Shown here piece by piece: positions 18,920 through 33,003 of a stretch of DNA of 64,000 nucleotides. Source of the DNA: a virus (Duplodnaviria; Heunggongvirae; Uroviricota; Caudoviricetes); IMG/VR virus record IMGVR_UViG_3300031759_000002, one strand, 5' to 3'. The position numbers were made by a program, and so were the translations under genes. Under the pieces are notes generated by a model. The model saw nothing but the letters and a program-made list of their open reading frames with translations, was not told the origin of the DNA and did no database searches. Numbering within the stretch: position 1 is the first letter of the stretch; the number at the start of each line of letters is the position of its first letter.

Positions 18920-19750
18920 ATGGCACTTAACATAGAAAAACTACAAAATAAACTTAAACAATTAGAATCTGGTAAAAAAACCGTTGATTTTAATCGTCTT
19001 CTCTGGAAACCAAGAGAAGGTACTCAAAGAATCCGAATAGTTCCTTATCGCCCAAATGGTGAAGAACAAGATTCTCCATTTATTGAATTGAAGTTTTATT
19101 ACAAGTTCAATGGAATTGCTTCTATATTGGCACCTTCCACTTTTGGAAAACCTGATCCATTTCAAGAGAGATTTGAGGCTCTTACTACAAACGGTACTAC
19201 GGAAGAAAAGGAATTAGCAAACAAGCACTTTAAGTCGGTTGCTAGAACTTATGTTCCTATTATTGTTCGTGGTGAAGAGGAACAAGGGGTTCGTTTCTGG
19301 GGATTTGGAATTACGGTATATAAGCAATTGCTTTCTTATTGTAATACTGAATGGGGCGATATTACAGATTTACGTGAAGGCAATGATATTGACGTTAAAT
19401 TCATTGAAAAAGGTCAGAAAATTGATAAGAAAACTGGAAAACCTTTTCCTGAGACAACTATTATTCCAAGTCCGAAGAAAACTTTAGCGGTATCTCCTAC
19501 CAATAAAGAGGCTATGGAAAGCATCCGAAAACAATTGGATATTACTCAAGTATTCCCATTGAAGACGTATGAGGAATTGGACGCAATTATCGAAGATTAT
19601 TTGGCTCCAGAAGGTCAAGAGCCTTCGACAGCCGAAGTCGAAAAAGCATCGGCTACAGTTGATAAAAAAGACGTTGCTGAAACTGCAACGCCGGTTCCAA
19701 CTGCGGCAGAAGAAGAAGATTTTGACAAGTTTTTTGCAAAATCATCTTAA
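18920..19750 (+). CDS. single-stranded DNA-binding protein (T4 gp32-like)
   Basis: LWKP, IRIVP, GVRFWGFG, GDITDLREGNDI, acidic tail EEEDFDKFF. Confidence 0.88.
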   Translation: MALNIEKLQNKLKQLESGKKTVDFNRLLWKPREGTQRIRIVPYRPNGEEQDSPFIELKFYYKFNGIASILAPSTFGKPDPFQERFEALTTNGTTEEKELANKHFKSVARTYVPIIVRGEEEQGVRFWGFGITVYKQLLSYCNTEWGDITDLREGNDIDVKFIEKGQKIDKKTGKPFPETTIIPSPKKTLAVSPTNKEAMESIRKQLDITQVFPLKTYEELDAIIEDYLAPEGQEPSTAEVEKASATVDKKDVAETATPVPTAAEEEDFDKFFAKSS

Positions 19751-19761
19751 AATATAATTAC

Positions 19762-19807
19762 AAAAAAGACCGTATAATATTTTTAGTATTATACGGTCTT
19801 TTTATTT
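19762..19807 (+). terminator. intrinsic terminator after SSB
   Basis: 14-bp stem AAGACCGTATAATA/TATTATACGGTCTT followed by a T run. Confidence 0.85.
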
Positions 19808-19819
19808 ATTTAAAAAAAG

Positions 19820-19847
19820 TTGATAAAACTAAAAAAGTTGATATAAT
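19820..19847 (+). promoter_or_regulatory. sigma70-type promoter (leaderless)
   Basis: TTGATA-N16-TATAAT-N6-ATG. Confidence 0.75.
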
Positions 19848-19853
19848 ATTTCT

Positions 19854-20261
19854 ATGGATGTAGAATTTCCATTTATGGCAAATAAATTATCTCTAAATAA
19901 TAGAATATATCCTAATGATGTCTTAAATGAAGCTATTATTAAATATAAAAAACAATATGTTGAAACTAAACATGCATTTTTATATAGTGGTATGAATCAG
20001 GATATTACAAATATTTGTTCTCAAATTTCGGATATTAACTTAAGTCCAGATGGAAAAGTATCTCTTTGTTTAGATACAACTGTAAATCCTAAACAAATTC
20101 CAATTAAAGAATTCTTAGAAAGCGGAACCTTTACATTAACCCCAGTTGGTATTGGAAACTTATCTGATAAACAAGAAAATGGTTCATATTTAGTTTCTAA
20201 TTATGAAATTGAATATATAGCACTTATTTCAAATGAACCTTTAGAACAAATTAAAAAATAA
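19854..20261 (+). CDS. degenerate prohead-protease (gp21)-like protein
   Basis: LNNRIYPNDVLNEAIIKY matches the gp21 N.NGR.YP motif; GELxHP and SSRG catalytic motifs are absent. Confidence 0.55.
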   Translation: MDVEFPFMANKLSLNNRIYPNDVLNEAIIKYKKQYVETKHAFLYSGMNQDITNICSQISDINLSPDGKVSLCLDTTVNPKQIPIKEFLESGTFTLTPVGIGNLSDKQENGSYLVSNYEIEYIALISNEPLEQIKK

Positions 20262-20265
20262 AATT

Positions 20266-20583
20266 ATGGCAAAAGAAAAAAATATAAATACAAAATCAAA
20301 ACATGTAGAAGTAGAGTCTAATGTTAATAGAGATGATTTAGCGTTGTTGCTACAAACCGCAATGAATAAGGCATCTAAAGATGGAACCAAAGTAGCATAT
20401 TTCGTAGATGAAGATGATAATCCATCCGAAATAAAAGAATGGGTATCAACCGGTTCAACTTTATTAGATTTGGCAATTTCTAATAGAGCACACGGAGGTC
20501 TACCTGTAGGTAGAGTGACCGAATTATCAGGATTAGAAGGCTGTGTTACGGAAGATACTTTAATTGAAGTTATTATTGAATAA
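20266..20583 (+). CDS. uvsX: UvsX/RecA recombinase N-fragment + 13-aa IntN (20542-20580)
   Basis: WVSTGSTLLDLAIS...GGLPVGRVTELSGLEG, then CVTEDTLIEVIIE*. Confidence 0.92.
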   Translation: MAKEKNINTKSKHVEVESNVNRDDLALLLQTAMNKASKDGTKVAYFVDEDDNPSEIKEWVSTGSTLLDLAISNRAHGGLPVGRVTELSGLEGCVTEDTLIEVIIE

Positions 20584-20630
20584 TTTTTATGTAGCCTGAT
20601 ATTTATATTATATTACCAATATTAAATATT

Positions 20631-21716
20631 ATGGCTAAAAAAGTAACAGATGCACAGACAATAGACACGATTATATCATCTATACACGATGGTTTAAGCG
20701 AAACGGAAATCTTCCAATTAAAAATTGGAAGAAAGCCTATTAGGAGAATTGCAAATGAATTTAATTTAGTTGATAAATTAAAATATAATAACATTAAATA
20801 TAAATCAAATCAACTTAGTGAATATGCGCTTGCTAAAAGAAATATAAAACTTATAGAATTAGATAAAATATATGGAATGTTAGTATTGGAATCCATTAAT
20901 AATGGAGGAATATTACAAGATGTTAAAAACATAATGAAAAATATTTCGCATAAGCAAGTTTTATATTTTTTAAAATATAAAAATTTAGATATACAGAGAA
21001 AAGAGAATTCTAAAAATTATATTAATATACAGTCTAAGATAAACGGAAGAAAAGCAATACCAATTACACGGGGAGTAGAATTAAAACCAATTACCTCAAA
21101 AATCATAAAGAGATTTGAGGAATTAAAACATAAGTTAAAATATAAACAGCAAGTTTATAATACATTGAAGAATGAATTTGGATTTGGAAGTGTAAAATGC
21201 AAGCAATTATGTGAAAAATACGGATATCCTAAAAATAATCCACAAACCGGACGGTTAAATCCGATGTATGGTAAATCGCCCGGAAAAAATGCAGGAATTG
21301 GAGTTAAGTGTTGGATATTAAACGATGGAATAAAATATTTTTGTAGATCTTCATTAGAATTGCGAATAATGTGTCATTTGATTTTTAACAATATTACATT
21401 CCAAATATCAAAACATAGAATAAAATATAAAGATGATATGGGAATTGGTCGAACATACTGTCCTGATATAGTAATAGGAAATTCGATTTATGAAATAAAA
21501 CCATATAATATGTTGCCAATTAGATTAAATGTGTTAAAATCAGAGGCATTAAAAGAATATTGTTCCAGATTTAATTTAAAATATGGAGGGTATTTGACGG
21601 AGAATGATATTGACATATCAAAATATGATATTAATTTTATATCGACTCTTATAAATTCTGGTAAAATAATAATAGACAATAAAAATTTAGAAAAATTAAA
21701 AAGAAATATTATATGA
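20631..21716 (+). CDS. free-standing endonuclease (TnsA-like PD-(D/E)xK) inside the split uvsX
   Basis: NPMYGK, CRSSLELR, RTYCPD...YEIKP; own ATATTTATA at 20599-20607. Confidence 0.78.
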   Translation: MAKKVTDAQTIDTIISSIHDGLSETEIFQLKIGRKPIRRIANEFNLVDKLKYNNIKYKSNQLSEYALAKRNIKLIELDKIYGMLVLESINNGGILQDVKNIMKNISHKQVLYFLKYKNLDIQRKENSKNYINIQSKINGRKAIPITRGVELKPITSKIIKRFEELKHKLKYKQQVYNTLKNEFGFGSVKCKQLCEKYGYPKNNPQTGRLNPMYGKSPGKNAGIGVKCWILNDGIKYFCRSSLELRIMCHLIFNNITFQISKHRIKYKDDMGIGRTYCPDIVIGNSIYEIKPYNMLPIRLNVLKSEALKEYCSRFNLKYGGYLTENDIDISKYDINFISTLINSGKIIIDNKNLEKLKRNII

Positions 21717-22990
21717 ATAAAAAAATAATAACTGTAGGAGAAGTAGATTCTCTCCTTAAAGAAGGAAAAACCATAAAAGTAAAAACATTGAATGGTGAAT
21801 ATACAAAAATAACCAGATTTGTTAATAAAGGTATATTGGATACATATTTAGTAACATTAGATAATGGAAAAACTATAAAAGTGAGTCGAGAACATAAGTT
21901 TTTTACAAATTCTGGATGGGTAGAATGTAAAGATATAATCCCTAATAAACATAGTATTTTATGTGATGATGAAACTTATAGTATAGTATTATCAGTTGCT
22001 TTAATTGGAAAATATAAAATTGTAGATATTACGGTCGAACATCCAGAACATTGTTATTTTGGAAATGGGATGCTAAATCATAACACCGGTAAATCTTTAA
22101 TGTGCGCTCATATTATTGCAGAAACAAGTAAACTTGGTGGATATAGTGTATTTTTTGATTCTGAGTTTGCAGTTGATAGAAAGTTTTGGACTGCGCTTGG
22201 AGTAAATGTTAAAAATACAAATTATGTTCCATTTACAACATTGGAAGATTTATTTACACATATAGAAACTTGTATAGGTGCTTTTAGAAAAGCAAATAAA
22301 GATAAATTATTAACTATTTTTATTGATTCAGTAGCACAAGCTACTATCGAAAAAGAACTTGAAGCAGAACATGGGATTGATGGATATAATACAGGAAAAT
22401 CCCTAATCTTAGGAAAGGCATTCCGAAAAATAACCGGTCTTATTGCTAAACAAAGAATCCTGATTGTATTTACTAATCAATTAAGATTTAATATGAATGC
22501 AGGTCCATTCGGAGACAAATGGACTACTCCCGGTGGAAAATCTTTAAGTTATGCGTGTTCTACCAGAGTAAGAATGGGAACCATTGGAAAATTGAAGAAA
22601 AATGATGAAGTAATTGGAGTAAAATGTACTTGTCAAGTTATTAAGAGTAGAATGGGACCGGGAGCACGAGGAGCACAATTTGAAATCCATTATGATTCCG
22701 GTATCCAAGATTTGGCAAGTTGGCTTAATTTCTCAAAAGAGCGTGGAATTATAACTGGAACTGCTGCTAAATATACATGGAAAAGAGCAAATGGAGAATC
22801 ATTGGAGTTTAATACTTCTAAGTTTGTAGAACTTATGAACTCTGATAAAGATCTTAAAGAAGAGTTTTATCAAGTGATTTGTAATGATTATATTATGAAT
22901 TATAGAGACCCTAATTCTAAAATTGTGGAAGACATTGAAGAAGTATCAGAGGAAGTTCCTCCTATTACTGAATCAAAATCAGAAGAATAA
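21713..22990 (+). CDS. uvsX: 124-aa IntC (21713-22084) + UvsX/RecA C-fragment
   Basis: Intein block B VSREH, block F VDITV, block G HN/T; then TGKS (Walker A), FIDSV (Walker B), FTNQLR, TTPGGK. Confidence 0.92.
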   Translation: MNKKIITVGEVDSLLKEGKTIKVKTLNGEYTKITRFVNKGILDTYLVTLDNGKTIKVSREHKFFTNSGWVECKDIIPNKHSILCDDETYSIVLSVALIGKYKIVDITVEHPEHCYFGNGMLNHNTGKSLMCAHIIAETSKLGGYSVFFDSEFAVDRKFWTALGVNVKNTNYVPFTTLEDLFTHIETCIGAFRKANKDKLLTIFIDSVAQATIEKELEAEHGIDGYNTGKSLILGKAFRKITGLIAKQRILIVFTNQLRFNMNAGPFGDKWTTPGGKSLSYACSTRVRMGTIGKLKKNDEVIGVKCTCQVIKSRMGPGARGAQFEIHYDSGIQDLASWLNFSKERGIITGTAAKYTWKRANGESLEFNTSKFVELMNSDKDLKEEFYQVICNDYIMNYRDPNSKIVEDIEEVSEEVPPITESKSEE

Positions 22991-23009
22991 CTCTTCTAAA
23001 TAGTTACCG

Positions 23010-23038
23010 AAAAGAGTGGTGAAAGTCCACTCTTTTTT
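23010..23038 (+). terminator. intrinsic terminator after uvsX
   Basis: AAAAGAGTGG-N7-CCACTCTTTT + T run. Confidence 0.85.
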
Positions 23039-23053
23039 ATTTTCTAAAATAAG

Positions 23054-23081
23054 TTGATTATGTTTCAATTTAGTATATACT
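23054..23081 (+). promoter_or_regulatory. sigma70-type promoter (leaderless)
   Basis: TTGATT-N16-TATACT-N6-ATG. Confidence 0.7.
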
Positions 23082-23087
23082 TTTTAT

Positions 23088-23405
23088 ATGGGACATCGTA
23101 AAGAAAAAATATTAAACGAACAACGTAAACCATTCAACATTCCAATTGAATCAAATACTATTGATTCTTTTAAGGGAATAACATTACCTACTATAAATAA
23201 AAAGTTTCCGGCATTTGATATCAAAGAGTTTTTAGAAATACAGCCTTTATCTAAAGCAACTGGATTGGTTTTTTATTTGGATGAACCAAACTTAAATAAT
23301 AGATTATATCCTACTAAAGTATTGAAAACCGCAATTAAAGAACATAAACGAAAATATATTATAAAATGGTATAATAAATTATGGAATTGGATTAAAAACT
23401 TATGA
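23088..23405 (+). CDS. small chimeric protein: major-capsid (Gol-like) segment + gp21-like segment
   Basis: GITLPTINKKFP...EIQPLSKATGLVFYLD followed by NLNNRLYPTKVLKTAIKEH. Confidence 0.6.
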   Translation: MGHRKEKILNEQRKPFNIPIESNTIDSFKGITLPTINKKFPAFDIKEFLEIQPLSKATGLVFYLDEPNLNNRLYPTKVLKTAIKEHKRKYIIKWYNKLWNWIKNL

Positions 23406-24484
23406 GTGATGATTTAGATAAAGCCAAGTTATTTTCTTTTTTTAAAAACATAAAGTCCGAAATGAAGGATTCCCATTTAAACTGGAGAGATAAAACTAAT
23501 AATCATATCTTAATAGTTGATGGTAATAATCTATTCATCCGAGCATTTTGTGCCACCGTCTCAATGAATGCCAATGGCGAACATAGTGGTGGAGTTGTGG
23601 CTTCTCTAAAATCTTTAGGTGCGGCAATTAAATTATTAACTCCTTCTCGTTGTATAGTAGTATTTGACGGAGTTGGGGGGTCTCAAAAAAGAAAAGCAAT
23701 CTTCCCTGCCTATAAAGCATATAGCACAAATAAAATTAGATTGAATAGAGTATATGATGATGATTCTACTCCTGATAATGAAGACCAACAGAAACAAAAA
23801 GAATATCTTCAATTTATAAATTATCTTCAAGTATTACCAGTAAATATAGTAAGCGAAAATATGGTTGAAGCCGATGACGTAATATCTTATCTGGCATTGG
23901 AGCAATTTAAAAACTCCAAAAAAGTAACTATAATGTCAACTGATAAGGATTTTTTACAGTTGGCAAGTTCTAAAGTTCAAATATATTCTCCTACTAAAAA
24001 ACGAATATATGGAGTGAATGAAGTTATTTCGGAATATAATATTCATCCTAATAATTTTGTGTTATTTAGAAGTATGGACGGAGATAAAAGTGATAATATA
24101 AATGGAATTGAAAGAGCCGGTTTAAAAACTGTATGTAAGCATTTTCCATATTTAAAAGAAGAAACAATTCATACTATTGATGAGATTGTGAATCATGCGA
24201 CTGATATGCGAAATAAGTTTGTAGTATGTGAGAATATTGTTACTAATAAATCTATAATAGAACGTAATTATGCATTGATGCAATTAAAAGATACTATGTT
24301 AGGAACTACTTCCCAATTACATCTTCAAGAAATATTAACTGAAAATAAAATACCAAAATTAGATAGAAATGCATTTTTTAAATTAGTAAGAAATGATAGA
24401 TTAGATGTAAATATGCCAGATTATAATAATTGGGTATCTGACGTATTTTCATTCTTGGATAATCAAGTAAGAGATGGAAAATAA
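23402..24484 (+). CDS. rnh: 5'-3' exonuclease / RNase H (T4 rnh, FEN family)
   Basis: ILIVDGNNLFIR, VVFDG, EADDVI, MSTDKDFLQL, GDKSDNINGI. Confidence 0.92.
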   Translation: MSDDLDKAKLFSFFKNIKSEMKDSHLNWRDKTNNHILIVDGNNLFIRAFCATVSMNANGEHSGGVVASLKSLGAAIKLLTPSRCIVVFDGVGGSQKRKAIFPAYKAYSTNKIRLNRVYDDDSTPDNEDQQKQKEYLQFINYLQVLPVNIVSENMVEADDVISYLALEQFKNSKKVTIMSTDKDFLQLASSKVQIYSPTKKRIYGVNEVISEYNIHPNNFVLFRSMDGDKSDNINGIERAGLKTVCKHFPYLKEETIHTIDEIVNHATDMRNKFVVCENIVTNKSIIERNYALMQLKDTMLGTTSQLHLQEILTENKIPKLDRNAFFKLVRNDRLDVNMPDYNNWVSDVFSFLDNQVRDGK

Positions 24485-26069: not shown

Positions 26070-27419
26070 ATGAATGAAGAATATAATAAAGTAGATACGT
26101 TAGCATCCCGACAATATGAAAAAGAGTTTCAAGCAAAAGTAATTTCAGTTCTAATTTCAGATAGGGCTTTTTTGGAGAGAATATATGATATATTAACTCC
26201 TGATTTTTTTGATACCGACCAACAAAAATGGATAGTTTCCAAAATCATAGACCACTGGAAACAGTATAAAGATACTCCTACTATGATGATTTTGGGACAA
26301 GAATGTAATTTAATTTCTGATAGTACCCTTCAAATGGCGGTAAAATCCCAGTTATTATCCGCTTTTAAAAATGCATCTGCTACCGATTTAACGTATGTTA
26401 AGGATAAGTTTTTAGAGTTTTGTAAGCATCAAAAATTAAAATCGGCAATTGCAGATTCATTAGAACTTCTTAAAAATCAAAAGTTTGATACTATTAAATT
26501 AAAGTTAGATGAAGCTCTTAAAGCTGGAATGGATAGAGATATTGGGGAAAATTATTTTGAGAGTTTTGAAACTAGGTCGTCTAAAGATACTCGATACACA
26601 ATAAAAACAAATCAACCAATTTTAGATAAATTGATGGATGGCGGATTGGGAAAGGGAGAATTGGGTATTATATGTGGAAATCCCGGTGGATGTAAAAGCT
26701 GGACATTGGTTAATTTTGGAGCGGAAGCACTTAAACAAGGAAAAAATGTTCTTCATTTTACCATGGAATTAAGTGCTGATTATACTGGTCACAGATATGA
26801 TTCTTATTTATCTGGCATTCCATTTCAAGAACGTCAAGCAAATAAGGCTAAAATAAAAGTAGCGTTGGATGCTACGAAGGCTAATGGGGCTGGCACTTTA
26901 TACATTAAATATTTTCCATTAAAAACAGCTACGGCTGATACTTTAAAAGCATTTACCGAACATCTTCAAATTGTCACCGGTATTCATATTGATATGTGGG
27001 TAGTTGACTATGTGGATTTGTTATTATCTTCGACTGCACCCAAAGGTTCTAAATCATATGAAGATGCCGGGGCAAAAAGCGAAGAGGTCAGGTCTGTATT
27101 AGGGTCACTCCAAATAGCCGGTTGGTCGGTCTCTCAGGCTAATCGGTGTTTGTCTTTACAAACTATTGTGAACGAAGAACTTAAAGGTAATATTAAAATC
27201 AAAAATATAATAGTTGGAGATAAGATATTAACACATAACGGATATAGAAAAGTATCTTATATATATCCTGTTAAAAAACAACCAGTGTATAGAATTACAT
27301 TGAAAAGTGGTAAAATTATAGAATGTTCTGAAAATCATAGGTTTCCAACACAATATGAAAAACTAAAAAGTATTATAAGTGGCTTATCTATAGGAGATAA
27401 ATTATTTACTAAAAAATGA
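26070..27419 (+). CDS. dnaB: replicative helicase (gp41/DnaB) N-fragment + 90-aa IntN (27147-27416)
   Basis: GGLGKGEL..GNPGGCKS, FTMEL, VVDYVDLL, SQANR, then CLSLQT...CSENH...KK*. Confidence 0.93.
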   Translation: MNEEYNKVDTLASRQYEKEFQAKVISVLISDRAFLERIYDILTPDFFDTDQQKWIVSKIIDHWKQYKDTPTMMILGQECNLISDSTLQMAVKSQLLSAFKNASATDLTYVKDKFLEFCKHQKLKSAIADSLELLKNQKFDTIKLKLDEALKAGMDRDIGENYFESFETRSSKDTRYTIKTNQPILDKLMDGGLGKGELGIICGNPGGCKSWTLVNFGAEALKQGKNVLHFTMELSADYTGHRYDSYLSGIPFQERQANKAKIKVALDATKANGAGTLYIKYFPLKTATADTLKAFTEHLQIVTGIHIDMWVVDYVDLLLSSTAPKGSKSYEDAGAKSEEVRSVLGSLQIAGWSVSQANRCLSLQTIVNEELKGNIKIKNIIVGDKILTHNGYRKVSYIYPVKKQPVYRITLKSGKIIECSENHRFPTQYEKLKSIISGLSIGDKLFTKK

Positions 27420-27452
27420 TGTTTTTGTGGTTACGGTCCATATTTATATAAT

Positions 27453-28511
27453 ATGAAAGAATTATATTACAAAAATAGAGAACATTTTTTATCACAAAAA
27501 TTTGCGGCTCCATTTAAGGCAATTTTAACTAATCACTCTTTATTGGAAATTGATAGTATAATAAAAATATTTAATAAAAATTATATTAGAAATATAAAAA
27601 AAGAAATGATAGTTAAATTATTAAAATATAATGTTGATGGAAGTTGGGTAAAGAGGTTGACCGAATCGAAAAAATTCGGAAAAGATGGATTTTCATTAGC
27701 ATCATTACAACATAGATATGGTGATTTAATCGGCAAACAAATATTTGAGGAGCAAAATAAAAAAATTACAGCACGAAATCAAAATTATACAGTGGAACAA
27801 AAAGAAATAATATCTAAAAGAAAAATATCTAATTTAGGATTGGATGGATATATTAAAAAATATGGAAAAGAAGAGGGTAAAATAAAATGGGAGAAATATT
27901 TAAAAAATTGGAAACTTGGAATTGAGAAACGAAAGCAAAAAGGAAAATGGAAAAATGGAAGGACGCTGCCGGAATTTCAAAGTAAATGGGGAGTAGAAGA
28001 TGGATATAAACGTTGGAGGGCATCATATGATAAAAGAAATCATACATTGTCACTAATAGGATTTATTGAAAGGTTTGGTTCGATTGAAGGGGTTGAGAAA
28101 TATTATAACCATATAGAAAAAATGGTTTCTAATTGTAGAGGTAAAAGTAATCCATACAGCAAAATATCACAAGAGTTGTTTAATAATATAACATCTAAAT
28201 TAGTATCTAAACAAAAAGAATTGGTAAAGTATTTTACCTATAATAAAGAACAATCATTTTTTGCCAATGGAAAATATGGATTAAACTTAATTTATGTTGA
28301 TTTTAAATGTGGGAATGCTATAATAGAGTTTGATGGTAGTTATTGGCATTCCTTCCCATCCATCATAGAAAAAGATAAGCGAAGAGATTTATTTTTAATA
28401 TCATTAGGATATAAAATATTAAGAATTCCAGAAGAAGAATATCTTAAAAATAAAGAAAAAGTAATTAAAAAATGTATTAGATTTGTAAATAAATATTATG
28501 AAAGAACATAA
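27453..28511 (+). CDS. free-standing Vsr-like homing endonuclease inside the split dnaB
   Basis: Repeated YIKKYG.EEG units, VDFKCGNAIIEFDGSYWH, ILRIPE; own ATATTTATA at 27440-27448. Confidence 0.85.
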   Translation: MKELYYKNREHFLSQKFAAPFKAILTNHSLLEIDSIIKIFNKNYIRNIKKEMIVKLLKYNVDGSWVKRLTESKKFGKDGFSLASLQHRYGDLIGKQIFEEQNKKITARNQNYTVEQKEIISKRKISNLGLDGYIKKYGKEEGKIKWEKYLKNWKLGIEKRKQKGKWKNGRTLPEFQSKWGVEDGYKRWRASYDKRNHTLSLIGFIERFGSIEGVEKYYNHIEKMVSNCRGKSNPYSKISQELFNNITSKLVSKQKELVKYFTYNKEQSFFANGKYGLNLIYVDFKCGNAIIEFDGSYWHSFPSIIEKDKRRDLFLISLGYKILRIPEEEYLKNKEKVIKKCIRFVNKYYERT

Positions 28512-28959
28512 ATTAAACACAGAAGAATTTAACCTTGATGAAATTGTTAGTATTGAGTGTATAGGAGATCAAGAAACTATTGATATTACAGTAGATGATA
28601 CTCATATGTTTTTTGCTAATGATATTTATACGCATAATAGTGCCGCTCAGAATGATATTATTGAAGGAGATGACATGGCGGAATCATATAAGAAGTTAAT
28701 GACTTCTGATTTTGTAGCTTCTCAAGCAAGAACAATGGATAATAAACTTACTAATACTGCTAAGTTCCATATTATTAAAAATCGATTTGGTCCCGATGGT
28801 AGTAGTTATATTTGTGATTTGGATGCAGCTACTGGGAGACTTGGAATGTATGAGATGGCTTCTATCGAAGGTATGGAACTTATTAATAAACTCAAAGGTC
28901 AAGAAGAAGCTCAAAAAGATATAATCCGTAAAAAATGGAATAAATCCAAAGGAGAATAA
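28498..28959 (+). CDS. dnaB: 47-aa IntC (28498-28638) + DnaB C-fragment
   Basis: TIDITVDDTHMFFANDIYTHN/S, then ESYKKLMTSDF, KNRFGPDG. Confidence 0.93.
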   Translation: MKEHKLNTEEFNLDEIVSIECIGDQETIDITVDDTHMFFANDIYTHNSAAQNDIIEGDDMAESYKKLMTSDFVASQARTMDNKLTNTAKFHIIKNRFGPDGSSYICDLDAATGRLGMYEMASIEGMELINKLKGQEEAQKDIIRKKWNKSKGE

Positions 28960-29018: not shown

Positions 29019-30302
29019 ATGAATAAGATACCAAATATGTTAGATGAGATGGGAAACTTCACCTTTACTACAAAATATGCAAAATATGAAGAAAAGAAAA
29101 AGAGAAGAGAAACATGGGAAGAAACTGTATCCAGAGTAGAAAAAATGCATTTAAAAAAATACAGTTTTTTAAATGAAAAAGATAAATTGGAAATTGTAAG
29201 AGCATTTGATTTTGTACGTGAACGGAAAGTTACTCCCTCTATGCGTTCTATGCAATTTGGAGGAAAGGCTATAGAAGCTCATAACTGTAGAATGTTTAAT
29301 TGCGGAGTAAGACATATAGATTCTATTCGTGCTTTTGCGGAGTCTTTTTATGCATTATTATGTGGGACTGGTATTGGATTTGGATTAACTAAACGATTTC
29401 TAAATCGTCTTCCTGCATTGGTAAATGCCAACGATAAAACTGGAACTATTATTACATATGTAGTACAAGATTCGATTGAAGGATGGTCCGATAGTATCGA
29501 AGCATTGTTAAATTGTTATTTTAAAAATACAGCATATTCCGGAAGAAAAATTGTATTTGATTATAGTAAAATAAGACCAAAAGGAGCAAAACTTAAAACG
29601 GGTGGTGGTAAAGCCCCCGGTTATAAAGGACTTAAAAATTGTCATAAAAAAGTAAAAGAATTATTAGATGAAATTATTGAAAAGGACCACCAAGTACGAC
29701 TTAAGCCTATAAATGCATATGATATACTTATGCATTGTGCCGATGCTGTTTTAAGTGGAGGAATTAGAAGAAGTGCATGTAGCGTGATATTCGATGCAGA
29801 CGATGATGAAATGATGAATGCCAAAACTGGTAACTGGTTTGATAAAAATCCACAGAGAGCCAGAAGTAATAATTCAGCCATCATTGTCCGTGGAAGAACT
29901 ACATTCAAAGAATTTAAATTGTTAATAGAAAAAACAAAACAATTTGGAGAACCTGGATTTCTCTATGTCGTCGATGAACGTCAATTATTAAACCCTTGTG
30001 TAACAGGAGATACATTGGTATCTACTACTAAAGGAGATATTAGAATAGACGAATTGGTAGAACGATACAACAACGGGGAAAAGTTTGATGCAATATCATA
30101 TAATATAGAAACTCGTTCTTTAGAAAATAATGAAATAACAATGGCTATGAAAACCCGTGAAAATGCAGAAATATTAGAAATCCAAGGAGAAAATGGAGAA
30201 GTTCTGAAATTAACTCCGGACCATAAGGTATTTGTGGAGGGACGTGGATGGATAGAGGCAAAGGATTTGACAGAGACTGATATTTTATTAAAAATAAATT
30301 GA
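29019..30302 (+). CDS. nrdJ: class II (B12) ribonucleotide reductase part 1 + 101-aa IntN-1 (29997-30299)
   Basis: KYA...RRETWEETVSR, PSMRSMQFGG, FNC, GGIRRSA, GEPG, LLNP, then CVTGDT...LTPDH...IN*. Confidence 0.93.
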   Translation: MNKIPNMLDEMGNFTFTTKYAKYEEKKKRRETWEETVSRVEKMHLKKYSFLNEKDKLEIVRAFDFVRERKVTPSMRSMQFGGKAIEAHNCRMFNCGVRHIDSIRAFAESFYALLCGTGIGFGLTKRFLNRLPALVNANDKTGTIITYVVQDSIEGWSDSIEALLNCYFKNTAYSGRKIVFDYSKIRPKGAKLKTGGGKAPGYKGLKNCHKKVKELLDEIIEKDHQVRLKPINAYDILMHCADAVLSGGIRRSACSVIFDADDDEMMNAKTGNWFDKNPQRARSNNSAIIVRGRTTFKEFKLLIEKTKQFGEPGFLYVVDERQLLNPCVTGDTLVSTTKGDIRIDELVERYNNGEKFDAISYNIETRSLENNEITMAMKTRENAEILEIQGENGEVLKLTPDHKVFVEGRGWIEAKDLTETDILLKIN

Positions 30303-30432
30303 TTTTATAAATCCCATATAATATTTACGATAGAGGAAAACAGGATATATTTACGGAATATCCTATAATTACAATTAGAAATATAAAAGATTATTTAACA
30401 ACAGGAAGTAGTTTAAGAAAAGAATTAAAATT

Positions 30433-31281
30433 ATGGAAACAAAACAGAATAAAAAAATTACCAGAATTAAAATAAAAAAAATAACGGTTCGTCCAAATGA
30501 AGATGTATATGATATATCTGTAAAGAATAATCATAATTTTTTTGCTAATAATATTTTAATACATAACTGCTTCGAAATTTCATTTATTCCAGTAACCGAT
30601 GATGGGCGTTGTGGATTCCAAATGTGTAATTTAACTTCCATAAATGGAGCAAAAATAACTTCCAGTGATAAGTTTAAAGACGCTACTTGGGCGGCTACTT
30701 TAATAGGAACTTTACAAGCTGGATATACTTCATTTCCATATTTAGGACATACTTCCGAGGAATTGTCAAATAACGAAGCATTATTAGGAGTTTCTATAAC
30801 TGGAATGATGGATAATCCTGATATATTATTCAATCCAGAGTTTCAGAAACAATCTGCCAAAGTAGCAGTCGAAACTAATAAAATATGGGCTAAGAAAATA
30901 GGCATAAATCAAGCGGCAAGAATTACATGTATAAAACCTGAAGGTTGTGTTGTTCCCGAGACTATTATAAAAACTTCTATCGGAGATAAAACTTTATCGG
31001 AATTGTTTGAGATAAATGGATATAAATTAGAAGATTATGAAAATTTAAATGAAAAACAATTTTTACCTGTAACTTCTAAGATTATGGTTAAAGATGAGAA
31101 TAATGATTGGCAATATATTACAAAGTTATATATAAATGGAGTATCCGATACTATAGATGTGGAAATGGATGATGGAACTATTGTTACAACTACTCCAAAT
31201 CATAAATTTTTAGTTAAAGGTCGGGGATATGTAGAAGCGAGAAATCTAGAAAAAAACGATGATATTTTATCATTTGACTGA
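30433..31281 (+). CDS. nrdJ: 45-aa IntC-1 + NrdJ part 2 (126 aa) + 111-aa IntN-2 (30946-31278)
   Basis: YDISV..HNFFANNILIHN/CFE; CNLTSIN, TLQAGYT, LLGVSITG, TCIKPEG; then CVVPET...TTPNH. Confidence 0.93.
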   Translation: METKQNKKITRIKIKKITVRPNEDVYDISVKNNHNFFANNILIHNCFEISFIPVTDDGRCGFQMCNLTSINGAKITSSDKFKDATWAATLIGTLQAGYTSFPYLGHTSEELSNNEALLGVSITGMMDNPDILFNPEFQKQSAKVAVETNKIWAKKIGINQAARITCIKPEGCVVPETIIKTSIGDKTLSELFEINGYKLEDYENLNEKQFLPVTSKIMVKDENNDWQYITKLYINGVSDTIDVEMDDGTIVTTTPNHKFLVKGRGYVEARNLEKNDDILSFD

Positions 31282-31300
31282 TATTTATATGTATTAAGTC

Positions 31301-32299
31301 ATGTGTAATATATGGTTTAATACACGTTTAATGAAAACTAAAAACACAAAATTATTAAGATTAAAGAGGTTTTTAATTCATAAATATGGACTGATTATTG
31401 GAACTAAGCGATTTAAGACATATTCATGCACTCATTCTGAACGAATGTATATATTTAAATTTGGAAAATGTGACGGTATTAAAAAATATAAAGAATATAC
31501 TGAAAAGTTAAAACCAAGAGGAACGTTGCCATATTATATTAAAAAATACGGAGAAGTCGATGGAACTAAAAAATATAAAGAAAAAAATAGAAAATTATCG
31601 GTGTCGGAAGAATCTTTAAGGTTGAATGGATATTCTGAAGATGATATAAAAAATATAAAGAATATACATTCTAAAAAATCATCTTTAAATATGGAAAATT
31701 GTGTTCGTATATATGGAGCCGATGCAAAATTTAAAATTGAAGAATGGAAGCGAAATCGAGTATGTGTTAGGAAAGTCGATGATTGGGTTTTAAAAAAAGG
31801 AAAGTCATTGATTGAGGCAACGGAATTAGTTAAAAAATATCAAAGTAGAGATTTGAATTTTTTTATTTGTAAATATGGAGATACGGATGGAAAAATAAAA
31901 TGGCGTGAATATATAGATAGTAAAATGAATTGTTTTTTTGGAGAGTCGAAGTCACAATTACAATTTTCAAAATTATTATATATGTCGTTATCGGATGATT
32001 TGAAGTATTTGTTTAGAGGATGTCCAATTACTAATTCGGAAGTTATTGTATTTGAGGACAATCCATATAATTTAAAATATTGTGTGCCAGATGTTGTAAT
32101 ATCCAATATCATAATAGAATTTGATGGGGAATATTGGCATAACATGGAACATATAAAAGAGCGTGATATTGTCAAAGAGTTTTTACTACAGTCGAAAAAA
32201 TATGTCATATTACGAGTAAAAGAAAAACAATTTAAAAAGAATATAACCGAAACGATAGAACAAGTTATAGATCAGATAAATACAAATATAAAATTATGA
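31301..32299 (+). CDS. free-standing Vsr-like homing endonuclease inside the second nrdJ split
   Basis: YIKKYGEVDG repeats, VPD..IIEFDGEYWH, ILRVKE; ATATTTATA at 31281-31289. Confidence 0.85.
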   Translation: MCNIWFNTRLMKTKNTKLLRLKRFLIHKYGLIIGTKRFKTYSCTHSERMYIFKFGKCDGIKKYKEYTEKLKPRGTLPYYIKKYGEVDGTKKYKEKNRKLSVSEESLRLNGYSEDDIKNIKNIHSKKSSLNMENCVRIYGADAKFKIEEWKRNRVCVRKVDDWVLKKGKSLIEATELVKKYQSRDLNFFICKYGDTDGKIKWREYIDSKMNCFFGESKSQLQFSKLLYMSLSDDLKYLFRGCPITNSEVIVFEDNPYNLKYCVPDVVISNIIIEFDGEYWHNMEHIKERDIVKEFLLQSKKYVILRVKEKQFKKNITETIEQVIDQINTNIKL

Positions 32300-33003
32300 A
32301 AATAAAATCAATAAAAACTGGAATGCGTAAATTAACAGTAGATATAGAAGTTGATAAAACGCATACTTATCAATTAAAAAATGGAACAGTAACACATAAT
32401 ACTAATAGCATTGTTTTATCAGCCGCATCCGGAATACATCCACATCATTCTAGGCGCTATCTTAGAAGAATACAAGTTAATAAAGAAGATAATGTATATA
32501 AATATTTTAAATTATTTAATGAACATGCTTGTGAAGAAAGTGTTTGGAGCGAAAATAAAACGGATGATGTTATTACATTTCCAATAGAAGTTCCGGAAAA
32601 TGTAAAAATTAAAGCTGATTTATCGGCAATAGAACATTTAAGACTTATTAAATTAACCCAAGAAAATTGGGTTAATTCTGGAACTACAAGTGTAAATACT
32701 AAGCCATTAAACCACAGTGTTAGTTGTACGGTTATGGTAAAAGATGAAGAGTGGGATGATGTTACCAAGTTTTTATTTGATAATCAAAAGGATTTTACCG
32801 CAGTTTCTCTATTGCCTTTTACGGGTGATAAAATTTACAAACAGCCTCCTATGGAAGCCGTTATAACAGATGAAGAAAATGCAAAGTTTGACGAGTTGTT
32901 AAAAAATTGGTCTATGGTCGATTATAAAAAACTAGAAGAAGACGACGACGAGACACAACATACTGCCGAAGCAAGCTGTGCTAATGGAAAATGTATAATT
33001 TAA
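32296..33003 (+). CDS. nrdJ: 35-aa IntC-2 (32296-32400) + NrdJ part 3
   Basis: VDIEVDKTHTYQL..VTHN/T, then SAASGIHP, YLRRIQ, HSVSCTV, QPPMEAV, C-terminal CANGKC. Confidence 0.93.
   Translation: MKIKSIKTGMRKLTVDIEVDKTHTYQLKNGTVTHNTNSIVLSAASGIHPHHSRRYLRRIQVNKEDNVYKYFKLFNEHACEESVWSENKTDDVITFPIEVPENVKIKADLSAIEHLRLIKLTQENWVNSGTTSVNTKPLNHSVSCTVMVKDEEWDDVTKFLFDNQKDFTAVSLLPFTGDKIYKQPPMEAVITDEENAKFDELLKNWSMVDYKKLEEDDDETQHTAEASCANGKCII

Follow-up and report, generated by a model that had tools for sequence, protein, structure and literature searches.

How a phage could obtain a complete UvsX recombinase from a gene that is broken inside its Walker A motif is the question raised by a locus in the IMG/VR virus record IMGVR_UViG_3300031759_000002 (Caudoviricetes). 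The record is a virus genome of 353,772 bp, rated 100% complete, from which a stretch of 64,000 nucleotides (the window) was analysed. The UvsX of the window, in two pieces, was the sole RecA-family gene of the 354-kb genome. The uvsX block consists of three consecutive open reading frames (ORFs; 20266–20583, 20631–21716 and 21713–22990), all on the + strand. The gap between the two UvsX pieces is filled by an ORF of 361 amino acids (aa) that was not mentioned in an earlier note on this DNA, made from the sequence alone. Our analysis indicates that the block probably carries a naturally split class-1 mini-intein in a fractured uvsX gene, which would assemble a 393-aa UvsX by trans-splicing. 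The coordinates of the features are listed in Table 1.

The first ORF (105 aa) read SGLEG, then CVTEDTLIEVIIE, then TAA. It covered positions 3–63 of the RecA Pfam profile and also matched PHROG 97 ('UvsX-like recombinase'); its N-extein shared 61–83% identity with the N-termini encoded by intein-less UvsX genes. Positions 62–261 of the RecA profile were covered by the ORF at 21713–22990 (425 aa), in which a 124-aa intein C-piece, including the Met, precedes TGKS. The break lies inside the GxxxxGK[ST] motif (GLEG/TGKS), since the RecA profile and the intein matches divide there. Each of the two ORFs carries an extein and an intein half, the joined exteins rebuild one host protein, and neither ORF contained frameshifts or internal stops. 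A scan of viral DNA contigs yielded 14 related loci, 12 of which were uninterrupted UvsX genes. The predicted ligation, TELSGLEG/TGKSLMCA, equalled the uninterrupted sequence of the ten intein-less loci checked at the junction, which read ELSGLE[GS]TGKSLMCA. The earlier note had described a short N-piece of 13 residues after GLEG with a TAA stop at 20581, and its coordinates and counts were correct. The remaining 124 aa, with block B (SREH), block F and HN/T, were found in the ORF at 21713 as it had stated, and its placement of the break within Walker A agrees with the GLEG/TGKS junction and the split of the RecA profile.

The Cys1 codon of the N-piece is TGT (20542–20544). The C-piece starts with MNKKIITVGEV, contains block B (VSREH) and block F (IVDITVEHPEHCYFGNG), and ends with LNHN at 22084, followed by Thr+1 at 22085. 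Residues 19–78 of ORF 21713–22990 matched the Pfam profile Intein_splicing with 35.8 bits, exactly at the cut-off. In 29 protein clusters with N-pieces of 13–14 aa, the class-1 nucleophile Cys1 was invariant; their consensus was CVTEDTxIEVIIE(D), with C1, V2, T3 and D5 identical in 29/29. The block B histidine (H61), the block F aspartate (D105) and the terminal H123 and N124 were invariant in 26 relatives, which had threonine (17) or serine (nine) as the +1 residue.

The pattern of substitutions points to strong purifying selection on both intein pieces. Comparison with the close relative L017 gave rough ratios of non-synonymous to synonymous substitution rates (dN/dS) of 0.03 for the N-piece, 0.065 for the C-piece, 0.09–0.14 for the exteins and 0.18 for the nuclease ORF; dS was nearly saturated (1.2–2.3) while amino-acid change was rare. 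These figures bear on the possibility that the locus is a dead relic, in which the nuclease gene broke a contiguous intein and left inactive halves in a phage without UvsX or one using host RecA. Such an outcome is conceivable in that a 13-aa piece is near the limit tolerated by artificial splits (PMC13014065). Against it, strong purifying selection on intein halves and exteins alike is accompanied by many synonymous changes, the catalytic residues are invariant in the 26 diverged relatives, about 30 clusters retain the positions of the stop and the restart, and the ORFs of the window contain no frameshifts or internal stops. We consider a dead relic improbable, although it survives somewhat better than the other alternatives.

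Six sequenced loci and dozens of protein clusters shared the three-gene layout, and a layout that recurs in this way is not due to chance. Besides the window, the six comprise L003 and L015, the other two of the 14 loci from the contig scan, with 14-residue N-pieces, and L017, L022 and L023, which were added from other look-ups and have 13-residue N-pieces; the C-pieces of these five were 45–89% identical to that of the window. A collection of 5.8 billion proteins contained 31 N-fragment clusters with an intein start. The N-piece was 13 aa long in 20 of them, 14 aa in nine, 19 aa in one and 52 aa in one; the last lies on a 610-nt contig and probably reflects a lost stop running into unrelated sequence. 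The C-piece was present in 58 clusters, about 40 of which had a start Met of their own at a position that varied by only a few residues. The stop codons after the N-piece varied among relatives (TAA or TGA), and the three frames after the stop of the window all close within 14 codons. Homologs in which readthrough or frameshift lengthens the N-piece had been named beforehand as evidence that would count against a 13-residue piece; none emerged, as the N-piece ends after 13 or 14 residues in 29 of the 31 N-fragment clusters.

The position of the break in the intein fold was derived from a contiguous allele of the same intein (P0032). Its AlphaFold2 (AF2) model had a predicted local distance difference test score (pLDDT) of 96.4, with strands at residues 7–12 and 15–20. 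Because these strands bracket residue 13, the natural cut after that residue falls in the hairpin turn between β2 and β3, known to the intein literature as the 'S1' site (PMC13014065). The cut aligned with Y13/G14 of Npu DnaE and, at a three-residue offset, with the cut of VidaL. The model had the horseshoe fold of the Hedgehog/intein (HINT) domains: 61 structures in the PDB matched at E ≤ 0.001, and those listed were inteins or other HINT-type domains. The best solved fold was VidaL (6vgv), with template modelling scores (TM) of 0.88/0.83 and a root-mean-square deviation of 1.8 Å.

Structure prediction of the complex, proposed at the outset as a check, was run with residues 1–140 of the C-ORF and residues 66–105 of the N-ORF, each with its family alignment. 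The 13-mer was placed in the C-piece with a score of 0.71, compared to 0.01 for the best of three controls. By rough counts, since author-made alignments were used, 58 of 80 solved complexes attained this mark, as did 2 of 110 mismatched pairs. Contacts agreed between runs by at least 69%, and the pLDDT of the partner was at least 53. At the modelled interface, all 13 residues of the N-piece and the last two extein residues contacted residues 1–9, 19–24, 101–106 and 115–119 of the C-piece. The net charge of the pieces was opposite: family-wide, N-pieces averaged −3.8 and the first 40 residues of C-pieces +3.8, and the corresponding values in the intein of the window were about −4 and about +4. 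This pattern is consistent with electrostatic steering of the N-piece onto the C-piece.

A model of this kind supports association, not chemistry, and would also suit intein halves that act as a dimerisation module, with UvsX as a two-chain enzyme that is never ligated. There is a precedent in the fragmented NrdA of phage Aeh1, which is reported to work without splicing (PMC3045599). In the UvsX of the window, however, 137 intein residues would stay wedged in the P-loop between GLEG and TGKS. Docking alone, moreover, needs no invariant Cys1, block B histidine, block F aspartate, terminal His-Asn and Thr or Ser at +1. Non-covalent assembly is thus unlikely, and marginally more so than a dead relic.

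The protein encoded between the two pieces has many relatives: an exhaustive HMMER search returned 491 at E ≤ 0.001. Among 80 that were aligned, 53 matched PF08722 (TnsA-like N), 50 matched PF05367 (phage endonuclease I) and 16 matched NUMOD3. NUMOD3 is a DNA-binding motif typical of homing endonucleases. A PD-(D/E)xK signature (E243, P278-D279, E288-x-K290) was conserved in the 80 sequences. The AF2 model of the protein (pLDDT 96) had a helical, DNA-binding-like N-terminal part and an α/β C-terminal domain, and its best PDB folds were the TnsA structures 1t0f and 1f1z (top match probability 1.00, E 1.5e-3). The relatives and the fold support assignment of the modelled C-domain to the TnsA-like PD-(D/E)xK nucleases. 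Relatives down to 33–34% identity still lay between split UvsX halves, whereas one more distant relative did not. The nuclease gene was single-copy in the 354-kb genome. A Vsr-like (DUF559, I-Bth0305I-type) endonuclease was considered and rejected: no DUF559 match was obtained, and I-Bth0305I (3r3p) ranked 32nd by fold (E 0.87). BLASTP found no similarity between the nuclease and the DUF559 endonuclease encoded at 27453 in the window.

The remotest of the alternatives is rejoining before the protein stage, with the 1.1-kb insert removed as an intron, or overcome by readthrough or frameshift, and the mini-intein then splicing in cis: recA group I introns with nuclease genes are known (PMC2677866, PMC3239194) and contiguous alleles of this intein exist, but positions 19800–23400 matched no Rfam family at E up to 1, and the insert is nearly all ORF, preceded by 47 nt and overlapping the next ORF by 4 nt. 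Readthrough or frameshift into frames that close so soon after the TAA would add unrelated residues and is not conserved, and in about 40 relatives the C-piece ORF has a start Met of its own at this position. A group I or group II intron carrying the nuclease ORF was likewise rejected, given the lack of an Rfam match at that threshold and the mere 47 nt of non-ORF sequence.

Trans-splicing of a naturally split intein would proceed as follows. The nuclease gene lies inside the intein coding sequence, at the predicted β2–β3 turn (S1), and because it interrupts that sequence two separate proteins would be made: UvsX(1–92) with an acidic N-piece of 13 residues, and a 124-residue C-piece fused to UvsX(93–393). 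The three genes probably share one transcript. This is plausible, if weakly so, because terminator-like hairpins on the + strand of 19700–23500 were found only at 19763–19803 and 23009–23037, none of them between the UvsX pieces. The ATG of the C-piece overlaps the TGA of the nuclease gene (ATGA), as it does in five of the six loci, and its translation is therefore probably coupled to that of the nuclease gene. The 13-mer would dock as β1 and β2 against β3 and block F of a largely pre-formed C-piece, assisted by the opposite charges, and would complete the HINT fold. Catalysis would involve Cys1, the block B histidine, the block F aspartate, the terminal His-Asn and Thr+1 in class-1 chemistry, with a thioester at Cys1, attack by Thr+1 and cyclisation of the Asn. 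This would yield a UvsX of 393 aa in which the GLEGTGKS loop is intact. Our analysis shows the layout of the locus, its conservation, the series of alleles and the predicted fit of the pieces; we infer protein splicing, homing by the nuclease and co-transcription of the three genes.

Several points weigh against this account. A piece of only 13 residues may bind weakly, and published artificial splits at S1 often perform poorly (PMC11766414, PMC13014065). The score of the predicted complex may reflect likeness rather than proof, because VidaL and other intein complexes have already been solved. The dN/dS values are rough since dS was saturated. The nuclease protein of the window itself had no sequence match in Pfam, NCBIfam, PHROG or PDB, and the middle gene is presumed to be a free-standing homing endonuclease from its relatives and modelled fold. 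Promoters and terminators were called by consensus matching only.

The same intein also occurred as contiguous alleles, in 11 clusters. Ten were 133–146 aa long; the other, at 200 aa, had an insertion in the same loop. A variable linker of 3–10 residues occupies the point at which the split forms end and begin again. The contiguous allele P0032 was found in the same gp32–UvsX–exonuclease–DnaB–reductase gene order, without the nuclease gene. In the 200-aa intein (P0057, residues 86–285), an insertion of about 60 residues lies exactly in the β2–β3 turn and could be a remnant or some other element inserted there. When 54 C-piece regions were placed on a maximum-likelihood tree, the 11 contiguous alleles were scattered among 43 split ones. 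Ten changes between the split and contiguous states were required, at least six of them forced by well-supported branches, and this number was no fewer than with shuffled labels. The split allele P0033 and the contiguous allele P0035 were nearly identical. Both this pair and the interleaving on the tree indicate that the nuclease gene entered or left the exact turn many times.

It is possible, though on balance doubtful, that the pieces of 13–14 aa are fully active and the shortest known natural N-pieces, and that the TnsA-like nuclease is a new type of homing endonuclease that targets the coding sequence of the β2–β3 turn, repeatedly turning contiguous mini-inteins into S1-split ones or being lost again. 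If true, a nuclease aimed at the turn would account for the interleaving of split and contiguous alleles on the tree and for the existence of atypical split sites.

C-pieces of the same family were also observed in other hosts. One opens a DnaB-like helicase fragment (P0050), which bears the N-part of a second intein at residues 264–345, and a contiguous form is present in a divergent RecA-like protein (P0053; junction GEST/C...HN/TGKT). These two hosts imply that the intein lineage moved between P-loop hosts. A related phage (L025:1061–5266) had UvsX in three pieces, with the 13-aa Walker A split and a second atypically split intein. The second intein cuts GDKY/TVSGGK and has an N-piece of 15 aa (CVDPFTTKIKIRYNV), a C-piece of about 128 aa and a DUF559/Vsr-like endonuclease gene between its halves. 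A second cut in UvsX, as in L025, explains the many 'C' proteins of 285–300 aa among the C-piece clusters. The UvsX of the window is uninterrupted at the second site of L025 (GDKW/TTPGGK, about 22880).

Natural atypical N-pieces are 15–37 aa long (PMC10189870, PMC13014065), and the same range had been given in the earlier note. The N-piece of PolB16 OarG, with 15 aa, was called the 'shortest characterized' in 2023 and 'record-short' in March 2026 (PMC10189870, PMC13014065), and that of VidaL has 16 aa (PMC13014065). At 13 aa, two residues below PolB16 OarG, the N-piece of the window is among the shortest natural ones, as the earlier note had supposed; no natural N-piece shorter than 15 aa was found in open-access papers and bioRxiv preprints. 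PolB16 OarG is also naturally split at S1, and its N-piece has been used as a synthetic peptide (PMC10189870). In contrast to the intein of the window (Cys1/Thr+1, UvsX host, 13 + 124 aa), it is cysteine-less (Ser1/Ser+1) and slow, with a PolB polymerase as host and a 168-aa C-piece. Ssp DnaB M86 is cut at the same hairpin and has an 11-aa N-piece, but is engineered and lab-evolved (PMC13014065).

VidaL (PDB 6vgv/6vgw) and the intein of the window are both cysteine-dependent class-1 mini-inteins that are naturally split at S1, after β2. The crystal chain of VidaL ends H-A-SGK, with SGK as the C-extein, and VidaL is thus also situated directly before the [ST]GK of a P-loop. According to the profile alignment, its N-piece extends three residues (KKG) further into the turn than that of the window. 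Its C-piece starts MIEEKKVTVQEL, compared to MNKKIITVGEV in the window, and the tail of its N-piece is basic whereas the N-piece of the UvsX family is acidic. In the alignment with VidaL, which had also been proposed as a check, the cut aligned at its offset. VidaL was the best fold match; a specific kinship in sequence was not found. VidaL and the UvsX family shared about 20% identity, and by profile VidaL (E 3e-10) ranked behind the DnaX and gp41-1 inteins. Since VidaL is no closer by sequence than other inteins, the UvsX family represents a distinct lineage of the same kind.

The fractured genes described by Dassa et al. in 2009 (PMC2677866) resemble the uvsX block: a DNA-metabolism gene of a phage is broken into two ORFs that bear the halves of a split intein and are separated by a free-standing endonuclease gene. 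They differ in that all but one have the canonical cut, with N-pieces of 88–105 aa, and UvsX is not among the hosts. Their endonucleases are GIY-YIG or Vsr-like, in contrast to the TnsA-like PD-(D/E)xK nuclease of the window. The AceL-TerL, GOS-TerL and Cat inteins are also of phage origin, have natural short N-pieces and are used in semisynthesis; unlike the intein of the window, they are cut at S2, after helix α1, with N-pieces of 25–37 aa and terminase as the host (PMC11766414, PMC13014065). The window itself holds two further interrupted genes: a DnaB-like helicase gene (26070–28959) interrupted by the DUF559 endonuclease gene at 27453, and a class II ribonucleotide reductase (29019–33003) divided among three ORFs, with intein halves and also a DUF559 endonuclease gene.

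The uvsX block is preceded by a gp32-like gene (18920–19750) and followed by a 5'-3' exonuclease gene (23402–24484). A blastn search of the DNA against 50,697 phage records gave no match. The scan of 19700–23500 returned four terminator-like sites, with 0.9 expected. Promoter-like sites were not more frequent than in shuffled sequence. In the spacer ahead of the nuclease gene, the motif CCTGATATTTAT.TTATATTA, or its TATTTAT core, was kept in the window, L017, L003, L015, L022 and L023, whose proteins are only 45–89% identical; it may be a promoter, ribosome site or regulatory site of the nuclease gene itself. Two small ORFs (19854–20261 and 23088–23405), neither of which had a Pfam match, flank the uvsX block and have in common a 30-residue segment, LNNR[IL]YP..VL..AI...K..Y (43% identity, pairwise E 5e-7). 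The position after uvsX-C is occupied by a small ORF alone in the window; in L017, the closest relative, and in L018, a gene for a 379-aa protein with a DUF723 domain lies directly 3' of uvsX-C (L017:4781–5920, L018:2543–3682), and is another candidate mobile nuclease gene.

Table 1. Features of the uvsX block, with window positions, strand and the basis of each assignment.
Feature	Position	Strand	Basis
Promoter-like site (weak), upstream of the gene block	19820..19847	+	Consensus scan, 11/12 matches with TG
UvsX N-extein, 92 aa, ending with the first Walker A half (SGLEG)	20266..20541	+	RecA profile, PHROG 97
Intein N-piece, 13 aa (CVTEDTLIEVIIE), Cys1 and strands β1, β2 (block A)	20542..20580	+	ORF reading, family consensus
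Stop TAA ending the N-piece	20581..20583	+	Relatives stop there or one codon later (TAA or TGA)
Spacer, 47 nt, with motif CCTGATATTTATATTATATTA partly conserved in relatives	20584..20630	+	Six loci compared
Free-standing nuclease gene, 361 aa, presumed homing endonuclease	20631..21716	+	Fold and relatives
Intein C-piece, 124 aa, strand β3 to terminal His-Asn	21713..22084	+	Intein_splicing match, conserved residues
UvsX C-extein, 301 aa and stop, opening with Thr+1-GKS (second Walker A half)	22085..22990	+	RecA profile
Terminator-like hairpin	23009..23037	+	Directly 3' of UvsX-C

An atypical split of the S1 type in a fractured gene is already known, and the mechanism is not new. What is new is the length of 13 aa, the size of the family, the interleaving of contiguous and split alleles on the tree, and the TnsA-like nuclease, a type that had not previously been described between the halves of a split intein. 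Compared with known cases the advance is small, amounting to 2–3 residues at the same S1 site, and the phage belongs to a large family. Short N-pieces are sought for protein semisynthesis because the label-carrying peptide must be made chemically. The UvsX family supplies dozens of natural variants of 13–14 residues together with matched contiguous and intein-less alleles, a panel suited to asking what lets so short a piece dock and splice. It should therefore be useful to intein engineers, and it is a neat example of how split sites evolve. For the phage, an essential recombinase is predicted to depend on protein ligation.

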